From an uncultured Muribaculaceae bacterium (lineage in GTDB: Bacteria > Bacteroidota > Bacteroidia > Bacteroidales > UBA932): a DNA stretch of 64,000 nucleotides. Below are positions 4,814 through 48,577 of the stretch, one piece after another. The stretch covers positions 2,861-66,860 of the forward strand of contig CAYVED010000005.1 in NCBI GenBank assembly GCA_964449975.1, written 5' to 3'. Position 1 is the first letter of the stretch. Every line of letters starts with the position of its first letter. Under the pieces are notes generated by a model that searched no databases, was not told where the DNA came from, and was given only the letters and a program-made list of their open reading frames with translations. The position numbers and the translations under genes were made by a program.

Positions 4814-6013
4814 CTATTTATTGGAGAGTATATAAGCCAATCCTCCCCCTGCAGTTTCTTTATAAAGACTCGGCAGATCGTGCCCCGTTCTCTTCATAAC
4901 TTCTATAACATTATCGAAACTGACCCTGTGATTACCGTCTGACATCAGGGAATATACGTTGGCATCTACCGCTCTCGTGGCTGCAAAAGCATTTCTTTCG
5001 ATACACGGAATCTGTACCAGGCCGCAAATAGGATCGCATGTCAGTCCCAGGAAGTGCTCCATACCCATTGAGGCGGCGTATTCTACCTGCGAAGGAGTAC
5101 CGCCGAATAATTGTACGGATGCCCCGGCTGTCATGCTGCATGCAGAACCTATCTCGCCCTGACATCCTACTTCCGCACCTGAAATAGAGGCGTTTGTCTT
5201 TATTATATTTCCTATAAGCCCCGCCGTTGCAAGACCTTTTATTATTTTTTTATCGGAGAAATCATAAAATTTCTTGTTCAGATACGTTACGGCCGGCAAA
5301 ACCCCGCAGGATCCGCACGTAGGAGCAGTAACGATCAACCCTCCGCCGGCGTTCTCCTCTGCTACCGCCAAAGCAAAAGAGAATGTCATGGCCCTTCTCT
5401 GCATAGATCCCTGAAAGCCTTTGGCTTTCATATAAAATGAAGCGGCTTTCCTCGCCAGTTTCAGACCGCCGGGCAGCACACCCTCATTCTCAATACCCCT
5501 CTCCACTGCCGCCTTCATGACGGTCCATACTTCATACAGATAATCGTCCAGATCTTTATCTTCATACAAAGCAACATATTCCCAGAATGTGGTTCCGTTC
5601 TCTTTACACCAGTTGAGAATATCTTCCATAGTGGAATGCGGGTAAATAGATTCACTGGGATTTCTCTGCCCCGTATCGCTTATATCCCCTCCTCCTATAC
5701 TGAAAGTAGTCCAACTGTCGACAACGTTTCCTCCGGAATCATAAGCCTCAAAAAACATCCCGTTAGGATGTTGCGGAAGCACTACGTCCCCTCTCCAGTT
5801 CAGTTTACACCTGTCTTCTCCCAAAACCTCAAGAATGGCCGTATCCGTAAGGTGACCCTTTCCGGTTGAAGCAAGACTGCCGTATAAAGTAACTCCGAAC
5901 GATGTAGCATCTTTGTTTCTTTCCTTAAATTGTAATGCCGCTTTTCCCGGCCCCATAGTATGACTGCTGGAAGGACCTCTTCCTATCTTGAATATCTCTT
6001 TTATGCTTTCCAT
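4814..6013 (-). CDS. sdaA: L-serine ammonia-lyase (iron-sulfur dependent, single-chain)
   Basis: N-terminus FKIGRGPSSSHTMGP and conserved Cys-containing core. Length is 399 aa. Confidence 0.9.
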   Translation of the reverse strand: MESIKEIFKIGRGPSSSHTMGPGKAALQFKERNKDATSFGVTLYGSLASTGKGHLTDTAILEVLGEDRCKLNWRGDVVLPQHPNGMFFEAYDSGGNVVDSWTTFSIGGGDISDTGQRNPSESIYPHSTMEDILNWCKENGTTFWEYVALYEDKDLDDYLYEVWTVMKAAVERGIENEGVLPGGLKLARKAASFYMKAKGFQGSMQRRAMTFSFALAVAEENAGGGLIVTAPTCGSCGVLPAVTYLNKKFYDFSDKKIIKGLATAGLIGNIIKTNASISGAEVGCQGEIGSACSMTAGASVQLFGGTPSQVEYAASMGMEHFLGLTCDPICGLVQIPCIERNAFAATRAVDANVYSLMSDGNHRVSFDNVIEVMKRTGHDLPSLYKETAGGGLAYILSNK

Positions 6014-6164: not shown

Positions 6165-7355
6165 ATGTATAAAGATTTTCAATCTTATTTACAGACCGAG
6201 CTTAAATCGATTCAGGATGCCGGCCTTTACAAAAACGAAAGAATTATAGTTTCTCCGCAAAAAGCAGCTATAAAAGTAAGCACGGGTAAAGAAGTGCTGA
6301 ATTTCTGCGCAAACAATTATCTTGGTCTTTCGGATAATGCCGAGTTGATAAATGCCGCCAAGAAAGCCCTGGACGACAGAGGGTTCGGCATGTCAAGCGT
6401 GCGTTTTATCTGCGGTACGCAGGACCTGCACAAAGAACTTGAGAAAAAAATCTCGGATTTCTTCGGTACGGAAGATACCATTCTTTATGCGGCATGCTTC
6501 GATGCCAACGGAGGCGTTTTCGAGCCGCTTCTCAACGAGCAGGACGCCATTATCTCCGACGCTCTTAACCATGCTTCTATTATTGACGGCGTAAGATTGT
6601 GCAAAGCACAGCGTTACAGATATGCCAACGCAAATATGGAAGAGCTTGAGAATTGCCTGAAACTTGCACAGGCGCAAAGGCACAGGCTTATCGTTACCGA
6701 CGGAGTATTCTCTATGGACGGCAACGTTTGTCCGCTTGACAAGATATACGAACTGGCTGAAAAATATAATGCCATGGTAATGGTAGACGAATCACATTCG
6801 GCGGGCGTCGTAGGAAAAACCGGAAGAGGAACTACAGAACAGTTCAACCTGAGAGGCAAGATAGAAATTATCACAGGAACGCTGGGAAAAGCATTCGGAG
6901 GTGCGATAGGCGGATTTACAACAGGTAAAAAAGAGATAATAGACATGCTAAGGCAACGCTCGCGCCCTTATCTTTTTTCCAACTCCATACCTCCTATGGT
7001 TGCGGCAGCCGGAAGCGCAATGTTCGATATGATGGCAAGAACAAACGAACTGCAGGATAAACTCCATTCGAATACGGATTATTTCGTAACTAAGATGAAA
7101 GAGGCAGGATTCGATATTAAACCTACCCAGTCCGCTATCTGCGCGGTAATGCTTTATGATGCAAAACTTTCGCAGCAAATGGCCGAGAAACTTCTGGAAG
7201 AGGGTATCTATGTAGTAGGATTCTACTATCCGGTAGTGCCTAAAGAACAGGCCAGGATACGGGTACAGATTTCAGCCGGACACGCAAAAGCACATCTGGA
7301 CAAAGCTGTCGCAGCATTCGTAAAAACAGGAAAAGAACTGGGTGTTATAAAATAA
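6165..7355 (+). CDS. kbl: glycine C-acetyltransferase (2-amino-3-ketobutyrate CoA ligase)
   Basis: 396-aa class-II aminotransferase fold with FSMDG and DESHS motifs and a PLP Lys context (GTLGKAFG). Confidence 0.9.
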   Translation: MYKDFQSYLQTELKSIQDAGLYKNERIIVSPQKAAIKVSTGKEVLNFCANNYLGLSDNAELINAAKKALDDRGFGMSSVRFICGTQDLHKELEKKISDFFGTEDTILYAACFDANGGVFEPLLNEQDAIISDALNHASIIDGVRLCKAQRYRYANANMEELENCLKLAQAQRHRLIVTDGVFSMDGNVCPLDKIYELAEKYNAMVMVDESHSAGVVGKTGRGTTEQFNLRGKIEIITGTLGKAFGGAIGGFTTGKKEIIDMLRQRSRPYLFSNSIPPMVAAAGSAMFDMMARTNELQDKLHSNTDYFVTKMKEAGFDIKPTQSAICAVMLYDAKLSQQMAEKLLEEGIYVVGFYYPVVPKEQARIRVQISAGHAKAHLDKAVAAFVKTGKELGVIK

Positions 7356-7428: not shown

Positions 7429-7435
7429 TGTAAAG

Positions 7436-7851
7436 TATCAATAGATGCGCTACAAAATTGATTTTTAGGTCTCCTGTAAAATACTTATTTTTAGGGGAAA
7501 TCCTTGATAATTTTGAATTTCCTATCCAGTGCATACAAACAGATTGGGGTACAGAGTTTTTTAATTATGATTCCCAATATGAACTTCATGAGCATTTTAT
7601 TAAGTTTAGGCCAATAAAGCCTAAAACTCCCTGGCAAAAGCTTAAATCTGTGGAGCATCTTATTCCTATTCAGCCGGAGGTAACCAATGAGTTCCGGGAT
7701 TCCGAAGAACAAATTTGGCCCCGAAACTATGAATATTTAAAGCGATTTAAGAACAGGGAAGCGACCATTACAACTAAAAATACTGGTAAATAGATTATTC
7801 CAAGATAATATGTCTAAGAAAACCCTTTACTTTGCAGCGTATCTATTGATA
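7436..7851 (+). mobile_element. internally deleted IS remnant (IS481-like integrase-core fragment) bounded by 21-bp imperfect inverted repeats
   Basis: Left IR tatcaatagatgcgctacaaa (7436-7456) versus right IR tttgcagcgtatctattgata (7831-7851), 19/21 complementary. The interior encodes only a fragment of an rve transposase core. Confidence 0.6.
7458..7793 (+). pseudogene. transposase fragment (DDE/rve core remnant)
   Basis: IQCIQTDWGTEFF...FIKFRPIKPKTPWQ resembles the IQTDxGxEF...IRPxxPxxNGKVER core of IS481-type transposases. The N-terminal two-thirds is missing and the sequence decays after KTPWQ. Confidence 0.6.
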
Positions 7852-7853
7852 TA

Positions 7854-8663
7854 TCACAGTTTGTAAACTCCCAGCATAAACTGTATCCCTATCGAGAAAC
7901 GGGGCACTTCTTTAACACTAATATTGCTATTAAAAGCATTGGTAAGTCTGTATTTTCCGTACACATATACCCGTTTATAGCCTATTCCGCACTGCACTCC
8001 GGCCTGGAACGGATTAAACTTACTTCCGTCTCGATATTTATATTTCTTCTTTTTCCCGGAACTGAAATCTTTTATCTTCAAGCGCTTGCTATACGAATAA
8101 TCCCCCCACGCAATCAGTTCTATAAAAACCTGGTCGCTGGAATAATACTTTCTCCCCGGAAAAAGATAAAACCTGTTCACTATTCCCGTCCCAAGATTAT
8201 CAGTCCTGTAATAATGAGTTCCGTCAGTCGTAGCTATCCCCAGATCAAACACATCTTTTCCACCATGTTTGAGTTTATAAGAATAAGCCGAATATTGAAA
8301 TATTGTTCCTATCCCGTACCATTTCACCGGACGATATATTAATTTGCTCCCTACTTCAAGATTAAAAGAGTTTCCATAATAAACCGGCATATTATCATTG
8401 CCCCCGACAGGGCACATAAAACCTATTCCAAAATACAACTCTTTTATAAATCGTTCATATCCTTTCTTATTTCCGTACTTACTATCCCCGTAACGGTAAA
8501 AGGTAATATCCTTCCCTCTCAAACTATCGTTCCTCGACGATCCTATTTTTATAGGCGACTGGAGAATGTACTCGGTCTCGCCTATTACTATTTTCTTTTG
8601 GGCATACATTGTTCCTGATGCCATGAGTCCGATTAAAAATGTAATAAAAAATAATCTGTTCAT
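7854..8663 (-). CDS. hypothetical outer-membrane beta-barrel protein
   Basis: Signal peptide MNRLFFITFLIGLMASGTMYAQ and a Y/G-rich alternating pattern. It is the last gene of the ECF sigma cluster. Confidence 0.6.
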   Translation of the reverse strand: MNRLFFITFLIGLMASGTMYAQKKIVIGETEYILQSPIKIGSSRNDSLRGKDITFYRYGDSKYGNKKGYERFIKELYFGIGFMCPVGGNDNMPVYYGNSFNLEVGSKLIYRPVKWYGIGTIFQYSAYSYKLKHGGKDVFDLGIATTDGTHYYRTDNLGTGIVNRFYLFPGRKYYSSDQVFIELIAWGDYSYSKRLKIKDFSSGKKKKYKYRDGSKFNPFQAGVQCGIGYKRVYVYGKYRLTNAFNSNISVKEVPRFSIGIQFMLGVYKL

Positions 8664-9700: not shown

Positions 9701-10219
9701 CTATTTACAATTTATTAAATAACACCTTAATTTTCCCCGTACCCTCGACAACATCGTCCTTATATTTCCCTGTGTAGTATCGAGTATGACAGCTATTTCG
9801 TCCAACTCATATCCCATTACATCCCTTAATCGCAATACTACCTGCTGATCAGCAGGCAAACACCTTAAAAATGTTTTAAGCATCTCTATTTTCTCTTTCG
9901 TTTCCAGAGCCTGATGCGGAGAAGCGTAACTACAATTATCCGGTGAAAATCCCGGCATTTTATCGAGACTCCGGTTATTGTTTTTTTTAAGTTTAATATA
10001 ATCCAGGCAGATATTCCTTAGAACAGTAAATAAAACAGCCTCCATACTTCTGAAATATTCTCCGTTGCAATTAAGTCCCCAGACCCTCATAACAGCCTCT
10101 TGTACCATATCCTCTGCAGTCGCCGCTCCGGATACGGCAAACCCTTCGGCAAAATGTACAAGTTGTTTACGTACCCCCTCTATATTTCGATTAAACTCTT
10201 GTTCTGTCATAACTATCAT
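9701..10219 (-). CDS. ECF-type RNA polymerase sigma-70 factor
   Basis: Region 2 (AEDMVQEAVMRVW) and region 4 (LRDVMGYELDEIAVILDTTQGNIRTMLSRVRGKL). Length is 172 aa. Confidence 0.85.
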   Translation of the reverse strand: MIVMTEQEFNRNIEGVRKQLVHFAEGFAVSGAATAEDMVQEAVMRVWGLNCNGEYFRSMEAVLFTVLRNICLDYIKLKKNNNRSLDKMPGFSPDNCSYASPHQALETKEKIEMLKTFLRCLPADQQVVLRLRDVMGYELDEIAVILDTTQGNIRTMLSRVRGKLRCYLINCK

Positions 10220-10246
10220 GAAGACGAATATCTCAAGTCTTTGTTA

Positions 10247-10254
10247 CAAAATTA
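10247..10254 (-). promoter_or_regulatory. candidate -7 promoter box (TAATTTTG) for the ECF sigma operon
   Basis: Minus-strand TAnnTTTG match with 27 nt to the ATG at 10219. Confidence 0.4.
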
Positions 10255-12886: not shown

Positions 12887-12959
12887 ACGTTTAAAATTTT
12901 TAAAATTGCATCTCTTTTTAGATAAGAAACTGTTTTTAATTTATTAATCTCATTCTTTA

Positions 12960-12974
12960 TCAGTTCTTTTTCAT
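12960..12974 (-). other. 4-codon mini-ORF (ATG AAA AAG AAC TGA) in the leader of the PspC operon
   Basis: It is preceded by the same 19-nt start context (TCATACGTTTAAAATTTTT on the plus strand) as the PspC gene 88 nt downstream. Coding status is doubtful. Confidence 0.2.
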
Positions 12975-13003
12975 ACGTTTAAAATTTTTTTAAAGCATCT
13001 GCT

Positions 13004-13101
13004 TACCTTGTTAAACAGGCTCGCTATTCGCCATAGTAAGCAGCTTAAAATAGCTAAAAAGTATCCTTAAAATAATTTCGGTAACAAATCAAAACAATTT
13101 C
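13004..13101 (-). repeat. copy 1 of a roughly 98-nt conserved upstream element (promoter/leader candidate)
   Basis: About 90% identical over 98 nt to 48461-48558, and reverse-complementary to 45585-45682. It lies in the sense orientation upstream of the PspC-PadR-PspC operon. Confidence 0.8.
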
Positions 13102-13169
13102 TAAAAACATGTTTACAATATAGTATTCTATATTAAACACTATCTTTTATAACAATGTTTTCTGTATTG

Positions 13170-13177
13170 CAAATATA
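13170..13177 (-). promoter_or_regulatory. candidate -7 promoter box (TATATTTG) upstream of repeat copy 1
   Basis: Minus-strand TAnnTTTG match about 70 nt upstream of the repeat. If used, the whole repeat would be transcribed as a 5' leader. Confidence 0.3.
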
Positions 13178-13220: not shown

Positions 13221-13246
13221 TAAAAAAAGGTATAAAAACTATACCT
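13221..13246 (-). terminator. second hairpin plus T-run downstream of secG
   Basis: aggtata (13228-13234) / tatacct (13240-13246), followed on the minus strand by a T6-7 run. Confidence 0.45.
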
Positions 13247-13306
13247 TAAATTTATTTATCGGGAAACAAGACGGTTGCAAATTCCTGACAAAAAGATATA
13301 TACAGC

Positions 13307-13338
13307 AAAATCCGGCTATTTGTAAATAACCGGATTTT
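13307..13338 (-). terminator. intrinsic terminator downstream of secG
   Basis: Perfect 9-bp stem aaaatccgg (13307-13315) / ccggatttt (13330-13338), 20 nt after the secG stop. Confidence 0.55.
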
Positions 13339-18789: not shown

Positions 18790-18793
18790 ATCA

Positions 18794-18897
18794 CCCCAAT
18801 CGCTGCAACTTAAAGGTTATCAGAGCATTTGAAAATTCAACACTATAGTGTTGAATTTTGCTGCCAATTGATAATCTTTAAGTTGCAGCGGTTGGGG
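18794..18897. repeat. 104-bp nested palindrome (29-bp outer arms plus a perfect 28-bp inner palindrome)
   Basis: Outer arms 18794-18822 and 18869-18897 are 27/29 complementary. Inner aaaattcaacacta|tagtgttgaatttt (18832-18859) is a perfect palindrome. Confidence 0.85.
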
Positions 18898-18923
18898 TTG
18901 TTGAGGTTGTAATTCTTTTTTAA

Positions 18924-18936: not shown

Positions 18937-20283
18937 ATGACAAAACTAATCATATTCACAAATACATACCCCTACGGTACGGGCGAAACTTTCCTGCATG
19001 AAGAGTTGCCGTTTGTCGCGCAAAAATTCAGTAAAGTAATCATTTTCCCGTTATATATTCCGGGAGGAACGGGAAATATCGGGAACATCGCCCTACGTCC
19101 GATCCCCGGTAACGTTATTGTAAAACGTCCCCTTATCGACTTCGATCATAAAGATAAAATGATGCTCCTGATTAACGGAATTATGCCGCGTTTTCCTATT
19201 GAGGCAATAAAGGAGTTTTTCAGCAGGAAAGTATTTTCGTCGGGAAAGAAATTATGGATATTTCTAAATTATACCCTGCTCAGAAACTCCGTTATCAATA
19301 ACCGGAGCGTTATTAAAGATGTTACGGCAGAGATAAAAAACAGCACAGCCGTTTATATGTACTGGGGGGACAAATCCGCCCTGATTATACCCTATATCAA
19401 AAAACGGCTGAAACATGCACCGAAGTTCATAGTAAGATTTCACGGTTCGGATCTGTATGAAGAGGCCAAAGGATATATCCCTTACAGAAAATCCATTTAT
19501 AAGAATACCGATTATGCCGTCCCGATTTCAAATAACGGCGCGGAATATATAAAACAAAATTATCCGGATACCCTTCCCGATAAAATAAAAGTGCACAAAC
19601 TGGGAAGCCACTCACACTGCATGCCTGAAACGATCCCGCCGGCAACGGAATTCTTTCATATTGTAAGCTGCTCAAACGTAATAGAACTGAAAAGAGTTGA
19701 TATGATAGCCAAAGCGCTCCTTAAAATAGAGCAGGACATCCCGTTTATAGAGAGGATGGCGGAAGCCGGTTATAAAAAAATAAAATGGACCCATATAGGA
19801 GACGGCCCGTTGTTAGAAAAAGTTAAGGGATTGTTTAAGACAGGGACATCTGTAATTTTCCCCAACTTTACCGGCAACCTCAGCCACGATAAAGTTATGG
19901 AGTATTACAGTACGCACCGAACCGAACTTTTCATACAGGTAAGCCGCAGCGAAGGCATACCGGTATCCGTAATGGAAGCATTATCTTTCGGGACCCCCGT
20001 AATAGCGACAAATGTAGGCGGGGTAGGAGAACTGTTCGGGTGTATCGGGGAAAATAACGGCGGTACAGCGGTAACGACCGGGGGAAAATGTACCTACGGA
20101 ACGCTTCTCGCTCCGGATGTTACAATAGAACAACTGGAAAAAGCCATTAAAGGGAATATTCTGCTTCCCGATAAAAAACAGGAAGAGGCACGTTCTGCCG
20201 CCCGCATGGAGTGGGAAAAGAACTGGAACAGCGAGAAGAATTACAGCGGATTCGCAGAATTCCTTTCAAATATCAACACCTAA
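18937..20283 (+). CDS. glycosyltransferase (GT4/GT-B fold)
   Basis: C-terminal [24 protein letters not shown] (E-x7-E region). Length is 448 aa. Confidence 0.8.
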
Positions 20284-45452: not shown

Positions 45453-45584
45453 ATTCGTGATTTTAAATTCTTAAAGAATGGGCGAAGTTAGTAAAAAATA
45501 AAATAAGCACGACTTTTGATATTACTTTATCTGTCTGTATTTAAAACTCTTTACATATAAAAGCGTTTATACATAAAAAGGATA

Positions 45585-45682
45585 CAAACTTTTTTGGTTT
45601 GTTACCGAATTTATTTTAAGGATATTTTTAGCTATTTTAAGTTGCTTCCTGCTGCGAACAGCGGAACCTGTTTAACAAGGTA
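45585..45682 (+). repeat. copy 3 of the roughly 98-nt conserved upstream element (reverse orientation on the plus strand, sense to the downstream gene)
   Basis: Reverse complement of 13004-13101 with about 16 differences and 1 gap. It ends 60 nt upstream of the ATG at 45743. Confidence 0.8.
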
Positions 45683-45742
45683 AACAGATAAGAGAAAAAA
45701 GAACTGATAAATATTAACAAATTAAAAATCATTTCCAAGTAT

Positions 45743-48363: not shown

Positions 48364-48460
48364 CGTTTAAAAATCTCTTTTATAATGTTATTAAATATAA
48401 TCTTAGCCACCGGCAAATGTATGATAAAAAGTCTAATATCCCATCCCCGTGTTAAAAAAT

Positions 48461-48558
48461 ACCTTGTTGAACAGGGCCGCTATTCGCAGCAGTAAGCAGC
48501 TTAAAATAGCTGAAAAATATCCTTAAAATAATTTCGGTAAAAAATCAAAACAGTTTCT
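48461..48558 (-). repeat. copy 2 of the roughly 98-nt conserved upstream element
   Basis: About 90% identical to 13004-13101. It lies between the susD-like stop (48578) and the thioredoxin-fold gene start (48363). Confidence 0.8.
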
Positions 48559-48577
48559 GAATATTCTCGTCAATCAT

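Follow-up and report, generated by a model that had tools for sequence, protein, structure and literature searches.

A short intergenic repeat with inverted ends before three envelope-protein loci of an uncultured Muribaculaceae bacterium: candidate mobile element or regulatory switch?

What does it mean when one and the same non-coding sequence stands before several genes for envelope proteins? In the stretch of DNA considered here (64,000 nucleotides in all, hereafter the window), an element of 98 nt had been described that recurs at three such places, and the original prediction took it for an operator or leader RNA through which the adjacent genes would be co-regulated. Much of that description stands, namely the three non-coding copies in sense orientation, the promoter-like pattern within them and the lack of a match to a named RNA family; the conserved, co-regulating operator or leader does not. 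We give about an even chance to the element being a dispersed, non-coding repeat of the MITE type that is new and specific to this lineage, and not a conserved regulatory switch. A regulatory side-effect, for example through a putative outward promoter, is possible, and a shared envelope regulon is not supported.

The core, its longer unit and the RNA it might encode

The element is built around a non-coding core of 102 nt, of which the 64-kb window holds three copies: copy 1 at 13004..13105 on the minus strand (nhmmer E 1.3e-30), copy 2 at 48460..48561 on the minus strand, starting 16 nt past the stop codon of a SusD gene (E 2.8e-32), and copy 3 at 45581..45682 on the plus strand (E 2e-29). 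An nhmmer model made from the three copies recovers these and no fourth copy in the window (next best E 0.9), and a 28-nt pattern from the core, with up to three mismatches allowed, likewise matches three times against 0.00 expected. Over 102–103 alignment columns, copies 1 and 2 are 89.2% identical (11 mismatches without a gap), copies 1 and 3 are 84.5% identical, and copies 2 and 3 are 85.4% identical, the longest perfectly identical block of the latter pair, as read from the alignment, being ~19 nt. The interval first given for copy 2 (48461–48558) is 1 nt off, since 13004–13101 pairs with 48460–48557, with 10 mismatches. The statement that no open reading frame explains the conservation holds, as no frame spans the core and all copies are non-coding; all six frames are interrupted in the element, the longest sense frame extends over 25–30 codons and has no start codon, and a 30-aa translation of the core found no match among 1.84 billion proteins.

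A direct repeat had been pointed out within the element, and TATTTTAAG indeed occurs twice in each copy, at spacings of 22, 22 and 21 nt in copies 1, 2 and 3, respectively. Are these repeats preserved by selection? Variable columns number 21 of the 103 in the core, and the longest invariant run, 14 columns, is what random placement yields (P 0.59); because this run matches chance, the intact repeats are no evidence of constraint. LytTR-type operators consist of 9-bp direct repeats with a 12–13-bp spacer, a geometry that the TATTTTAAG repeats fit with a sequence unlike the LytTR consensus. No LytTR regulator was found among the 31 window proteins scanned, and a repeat search revealed no dyad symmetry in the core.

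The homology of copies 1 and 3 extends ~50 nt past the 3′ side of the core, up to ...AAATTAAAAAC(A)GTTTC, so that the 98 nt originally delimited represent the common core only. The full-length unit measures ~152–178 nt and is bounded by imperfect terminal inverted repeats of ~21 nt, with the consensus AGAAACTGTTTTGATTTGTTA ... TAAYAAATTAAAAACAGTTTCT. In copy 1, the unit delimited by the end pattern and the terminal stem is 178 nt long (12925..13102, minus strand), with its left inverted repeat AGAAATTGTTTTGATTTGTTA at 13082–13102 and its right inverted repeat TAATAAATTAAAAACAGTTTCT at 12925–12946. In copy 3, homology to copy 1 up to ...TTTC and the terminal stem delimit a unit of ~152 nt (45584..45735, plus strand), whose left inverted repeat lies at 45584–45604 and whose right one, at 45715–45735, is degenerate (inverted repeat of 14 nt, 86% complementary). 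The left-end pattern AGAAACTGTTTTGATTT, with up to three mismatches, matches four times in the window against 0.53 expected; these matches are the three left ends and 12925–12941 on the opposite strand, exactly where the homology of copies 1 and 3 stops. The inverted repeat of copy 1 is matched there over 17/17 positions with 2–3 mismatches and reaches ~21 nt.

Copy 2 shares the core only. Its right end is not recognisable, and its 3′ part shows no significant similarity to the tail of copy 3 (P 0.155); a candidate right inverted repeat was rejected, as it matches copy 1 marginally (P 0.005) but in a stretch that is also present in relatives, close to the start of the thioredoxin-like gene (Trx). 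Also rejected was the idea that the tail of copy 1 is native leader of the downstream PspC operon, held in common with a related locus (L018), the similarity being not significant (P 0.73). Copy 1 further contains a 24-nt segment, GCTTTAAAAAAATTTTAAACGTAT (12973..12996, minus strand), that the alignment shows to be missing from copy 3; forming a direct repeat at a spacing of 88 nt, it is a copy of the context in which start codons stand at this locus, and it gives rise to a mini-ORF, MKKN followed by a stop codon (12960–12974).

Could the element then act as RNA? That it encodes a structured cis-regulatory leader RNA or a small RNA strikes us as quite improbable, although several observations point that way. 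Copy 1 appears, from its place downstream of a conserved promoter box, to lie within a transcribed leader; full-length copies 1 and 3 fold better than shuffled sequences, with terminal stems of ~21 bp (z -3.67) and ~14 bp (z -2.16), respectively; and several mismatches of the inverted repeat are G-U compatible on the sense strand. However, the stability of the full-length folds is due to the terminal inverted repeat alone, and copy 2, which has no terminal stem, gives a z of +0.08. The cores fold no better than shuffles (z +0.2 to -1.6) and adopt a different structure in each copy, and the alifold consensus of -12.8 kcal/mol includes a covariation term of -0.11, that is, essentially no covariation. 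The short hairpin with differing stem bases that had been proposed is out of register in copy 1. As anticipated, the element belongs to no named family: Rfam returned no match in the whole window at gathering thresholds, and a search with two of the copies at E up to 10 gave chance-level scores of 12–20 bits, against thresholds of 39–120. Nor does a terminator follow the element in an E. coli-type scan, which is uninformative for this phylum, and an RNA of this kind would also have to be reconciled with the lack of conservation in relatives.

The same sites in related genomes

The AspRS of the window has no equal in the protein collection searched; the closest relatives carry one that is 87–89% identical, and five of their genomes retain the gene order SusC-SusD-Trx-KsgA-PepSY-AspRS, whole or in part. 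The spacer between SusD and Trx, the site of copy 2, is 71 nt long in two of them (L012 and L017) versus 215 nt in the window, and that between PepSY and AspRS, the site of copy 3, is 119 nt long (114 nt in L009) versus 290 nt, with gene order and orientation unchanged. At the PspC site, the window can be aligned with L018/L019 through the SecG terminator, the box TATATTTG and the initial ~45 nt of leader, and a fragment (L020) aligns with the PspC leader too; compared with L018, the window then carries ~115 extra nucleotides, which correspond to the core. The element is thus missing from 3/3 orthologous, syntenic sites in the closest relatives compared, and nhmmer models of the core and of the full-length unit found no match in ~200 kb of the relatives' loci. 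This speaks against a conserved operator or leader, a reading that had itself been tied to conservation upstream of orthologous genes. At an AspRS identity of 87–89%, the relatives are distant enough that exact empty sites cannot be reconstructed; loss of the element in the relatives, as an alternative to its gain in the lineage of the window, is less parsimonious.

Wider searches gave a similar picture. Scans for the exact core in 185,579 species genomes and in JGI metagenomes returned eight chance matches, none with similarity in the flanks; viral contigs held no exact-core match, and plasmids and phages gave no blastn match to full-length copy 1. As the collection scans required an exact match of 19–20 nt, they would overlook elements that are related but diverged.

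The relatives bear equally on another role that repeats can play. Copies 2 and 3 are inverted with respect to each other and 2.8 kb apart, as might be expected of recombination substrates that flip the PepSY-KsgA-Trx segment in the manner of an invertible region. We hold this to be extremely improbable: relatives without the repeat show the same gene order and orientation, identity between the two copies is uninterrupted over ~19 nt at most, a recombinase gene was not found nearby, and copy 1 is unpaired.

Further differences between the window and its relatives lie close to these sites. In L018 (about 5880–6003), and also in L019 and L021, the PspC leader holds a different, non-homologous insertion of ~80–90 nt, which is flanked by a 19-nt start-context duplication, AAAATTAAAGCGTATGAAA, and creates an upstream ORF of eight codons (MKPSIVQC, then a stop codon); the L020 fragment has neither this insertion nor that of the window. 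Different insertions in the window and in L018/L019/L021, and none in L020, make the PspC start look like a recurrent insertion site. After SecG, the window (13225–13335, minus strand) and L018 (5640–5770) each carry two successive terminator-like structures, hairpins with a T-run, of which the first is conserved in sequence and the second has another sequence of the same form. In L013–L016 (about 7130–7300), the thioredoxin-like gene has no SusC/SusD pair upstream of it, and of SusD there remains what looks like the terminal ~100 nt, which suggests that the locus was replaced or deleted in those strains.

Promoter boxes, orientation and start codons

Each copy lies 5′ of the next gene and in sense with it, as had been observed, and Pfam agrees with the proposed products: PspC (199 aa)-PadR-PspC (508 aa) after copy 1, a thioredoxin-like protein after copy 2, whose start codon we correct from 48363 to 48362, and a PepSY_like protein after copy 3. 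From the core to the ATG there are 118, 98 and 61 nt in copies 1, 2 and 3, respectively; the full-length units end 39 nt (copy 1) and 8 nt (copy 3, before the PepSY_like gene) from the start codon. Such an arrangement invites the idea of a copy-pasted promoter/operator cassette, kept by selection, that wires the PspC-PadR-PspC, thioredoxin-like and PepSY_like genes into one envelope regulon, its internal TTTG-N21-TAyTTTTn serving as a sigma-A promoter and the TATTTTAAG pair, 21–22 bp apart, as tandem binding sites of one regulator. We regard this as possible but rather doubtful. In its favor are the sense orientation of all three copies at 61–118 nt from the adjacent ATG, the envelope association of all downstream products, the direct repeat intact in 3/3 copies at a distance of two helical turns, and the promoter-like pattern in the core. 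How far does each of these carry?

Orientation was previously taken to argue for a co-regulated mini-regulon. Copies 1 and 2 are each flanked by genes that run in a common direction and so had a chance of 1/2 each of being in sense, and copy 3 lies between the divergent AspRS and PepSY genes, one of which it would match in direction whichever way it pointed. With only two copies informative, 3/3 in sense has P = 0.25 and is not significant.

The promoter-like pattern is present much as described, with TTTG 21 nt upstream of TAyTTTTn in copies 1 and 3 and TTTT in its place in copy 2. The Bacteroidetes sigma-A promoter has TTTG at about -33 and TAnnTTTG at -7 (PMC7366714); the TTTG of such promoters stands about 19–21 nt upstream of the -7 box, and in copies 1 and 3 it is 21 nt upstream of TAyTTTT, but the core copies lack the terminal G at -7, and copy 2 has TTTT at -33. 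The core-internal -7-like boxes, TACTTTTT in copy 1 (13056..13063, minus strand), TATTTTTC in copy 2 (48512–48519, minus strand) and TATTTTTA in copy 3 (45623–45630, plus strand), all have a single mismatch to TAnnTTTG, at this final G, and the same position varies between copies. By our estimate from the box positions, a putative promoter within the core would imply 5′ UTRs of ~110–165 nt, whereas the median in B. thetaiotaomicron is 32 nt (PMC7366714). A sigma-54 promoter was considered as well and set aside, the GG-N10-GC pattern being seen by eye in copy 1 only.

Exact -7 boxes exist outside the core. Upstream of copy 1, TATATTTG (13170..13177, minus strand) belongs to the native PspC-operon promoter, and both the box and the leader that follows it are conserved in relatives, in the global alignment of the window with L018 as well as in the L020 fragment. 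At copy 2, the only exact box is TACATTTG (48414..48421, minus strand), between the core and the thioredoxin-like gene and 51 nt from the ATG. In copy 1, therefore, the core follows a conserved box and lies in the leader, and in copy 2 it precedes the best box; with its position relative to the promoter boxes differing between copies, one fixed cis-mechanism is hard to reconcile, unless the core's own imperfect promoter is used. A selected cassette further has to contend with the absence of the element from 3/3 orthologous sites and with invariant blocks no longer than chance, and it leaves the inverted ends without explanation.

Might regulators encoded nearby act on the element? Copy 1 has an ECF sigma / DUF4252 cluster and a gene for a PadR as neighbors, and the element could accordingly be the target promoter of the neighboring ECF sigma factor (9701–10219) or the operator of the PadR of the copy-1 operon. 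We think either very unlikely. The pattern TGTAAC-N16-TCGTC occurs once in the window, at 10223–10247, and in none of the copies. PadR operators show dyad symmetry, which the core lacks, and a palindrome of ~30 nt at 13107–13142, outside the element, is the better operator candidate. This near-perfect palindrome, TGTTTAATATAG-AATAC-TATATTGTAAACA, is part of the PspC leader (minus strand), where it follows the conserved promoter and precedes copy 1, and is absent from L018; it may serve as an operator, for instance for the PadR of the operon. The ECF-type promoter-like motif itself, TGTAACAAA-N-ATTCGTCTT (10223–10247, minus strand; about 8800–8830 in L018), stands upstream of the ECF sigma gene, where TGTAAC-N16-TCGTC is conserved in the window, L018 and L021. 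As the sigma factors of the relatives start with MTEQEF, that of the window probably starts at the second ATG (10210) and not at 10219.

A second, shorter sequence is repeated at two of the three loci. A context of ~20 nt, CTAAAAA..TTTT(T)AAACGT followed by ATGAA, is common to six gene starts and to the mini-ORF in copy 1; its shared part is (T)TTAAACGT directly before ATGAA, usually after CTAAAAA..TTTT, and the motif of the gene starts has the form TTTAAACGTATGAA. The ATGs concerned, all on the minus strand, are at 8663, 9218, 11916, 12886, 12974 (the mini-ORF), 48362 and 50119, and the six genes, from the loci of copies 1 and 2, all specify envelope proteins (a 269-aa OMP-like protein, DUF4252, both PspC proteins, the thioredoxin-like protein and SusD). 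AAACGTATG occurs eight times in the window against ~0.7 expected and not once in three 21.7-kb loci of relatives, whose orthologues lack the start context. At the gene for the 508-aa PspC, the window shows a precise 20-nt insertion directly before the ATG: where L018 has CAAATAGCT followed by ATG, the window has CAAATAGCT, then CTAAAAAATTTTTTAAACGT, then ATG.

This start-codon motif, found at the loci of copies 1 and 2 and absent from orthologues, hints at lineage-specific rewiring and to that extent favors a selected cassette. A bolder account would have the lineage rebuild the control of its envelope genes by copying short cis-elements, namely a cassette of ~150 nt placed before three loci and, independently, the start context CTAAAAAATTTTTAAACGT followed by ATGAA, written onto six start codons at the loci of copies 1 and 2. 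We deem it unlikely; were it true, it would imply templated copy-paste at start codons and a shared regulator of transcription and translation.

A possible history and its parallels among small repeats

Taken together, the inverted ends and the absence from the same sites in the closest relatives make the element look like an ordinary small mobile repeat. It is non-coding and, at 152–178 nt, well within the ~500 bp below which MITEs fall. Terminal inverted repeats stand at the limits of the unit, clear in copy 1 and degenerate in copy 3, the right end of copy 2 not being recognisable; and presence/absence polymorphism is seen at all three sites, against relatives only 87–89% identical in AspRS. 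No convincing target-site duplication was seen: copy 1 is flanked by TTA at either end when the unit is taken to run as GAAA...TTTC, and copy 3 has no duplication. A transposase with matching ends was not found in the window.

Two other structures of the window are of a related kind. At 7429–7858, a segment of ~430 nt between inverted repeats of 28 nt (82% complementary) contains an ORF of 111 codons that weakly matches IS481-family transposases (NCBIfam E 3.7e-5, 23 bits versus a cutoff of 224) and has no match in Pfam; judged by its sequence, it is probably a decayed IS481-like insertion sequence remnant, with ends unrelated to those of the element. At 18793–18898, in intergenic DNA before a gene at 18937, an inverted repeat with 30-nt arms (93% complementary, 46 nt apart) is preceded by a C-rich run and may represent either a strong hairpin or one more of the small palindromic repeats.

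If the element is a MITE-type repeat, how did it come to these places, and with what consequences? Its arrival in the AT-rich intergenic DNA 5′ of genes in this lineage would postdate the split from the closest sampled relatives. We suppose that the copies were inserted in trans, the transposase being one that recognises the inverted ends and whose gene lies in another part of the genome; copy 2 may subsequently have lost or replaced its right half. Lying between the upstream DNA of genes and their start codons, at 8–39 nt from the ATG for the full-length copies, the copies should be either co-transcribed or supplying transcription. They may be transcribed within the 5′ leader, as the location of copy 1 downstream of a promoter box conserved in relatives suggests; alternatively, transcription might issue from their internal TTTG-N21-TAyTTTTn pattern, and with the RNA then starting after the left inverted repeat, the long terminal hairpin would not form. 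Sense orientation, if it held genome-wide, would reflect selection on tolerated insertions and not a designed regulon.

Read as a mobile repeat, the element would add one more family of small mobile intergenic repeats, from an uncultured Bacteroidales lineage, and could be used as a marker of recent genome change there. It would also be a possible natural example of a MITE that donates a promoter or leader, in a phylum with unusual promoters and translation starts, and a caution that the same sequence before several genes need not mean a regulon. Should strict sense orientation before envelope genes hold across the genome, or the start-codon motif prove to be a copied regulatory signal, the assembly of regulons by mobile cis-elements would become directly testable.

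Known systems offer several parallels, of form and not of sequence, since the searches above found similarity to the element nowhere outside the window. The Correia elements of Neisseria and the ERIC elements of enterobacteria measure ~100–160 bp, have terminal inverted repeats and lie beside genes, with which they are transcribed as leaders that form hairpins, and promoters come from some of the copies; Correia elements, moreover, are high-copy and marked by a TA duplication, an IHF site and RNase III processing, none of which was observed for our element. Our element resembles both in unit size, terminal inverted repeats and gene-adjacent insertion, but they belong to another phylum and have another sequence. 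Correia, ERIC and REPIN are listed among promoter-bearing small repeats in a study of putative mobile promoters (Matus-Garcia, Nijveen and van Passel 2012; PMC3575422). To be classed as such, two sequences of a genome must share 80% identity or more over a length of 50 nt or more, in the interval -150..-50 of genes that are not paralogous. Copies 2 and 3 qualify as such a pair, with ~85% identity over the 53 core positions that they share in this interval (positions 50–102) and with downstream proteins of different Pfam families, which also lends something to the idea of a selected cassette; the core of copy 1 lies mostly beyond -150, with only 33 nt within -150..-50, and the class of putative mobile promoters, an established one, is defined operationally and implies no mechanism (PMC3575422). 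Within the Bacteroidales, species-specific intergenic MITEs with promoter activity are represented by BrickBuilt of Porphyromonas gingivalis (Klein et al. 2015; PMC4596501). BrickBuilt is built on a 23-nt minisatellite and present in 19 copies per genome (PMC4596501), in contrast to the 9-nt direct repeat that is all our element has and to the three copies counted in the 64-kb window. In other respects the two are alike: both are small, non-coding and intergenic, end in inverted repeats, are confined to one species or lineage, lie near gene starts, and carry inside them promoter elements, as reported for BrickBuilt, or in our case a promoter-like pattern.
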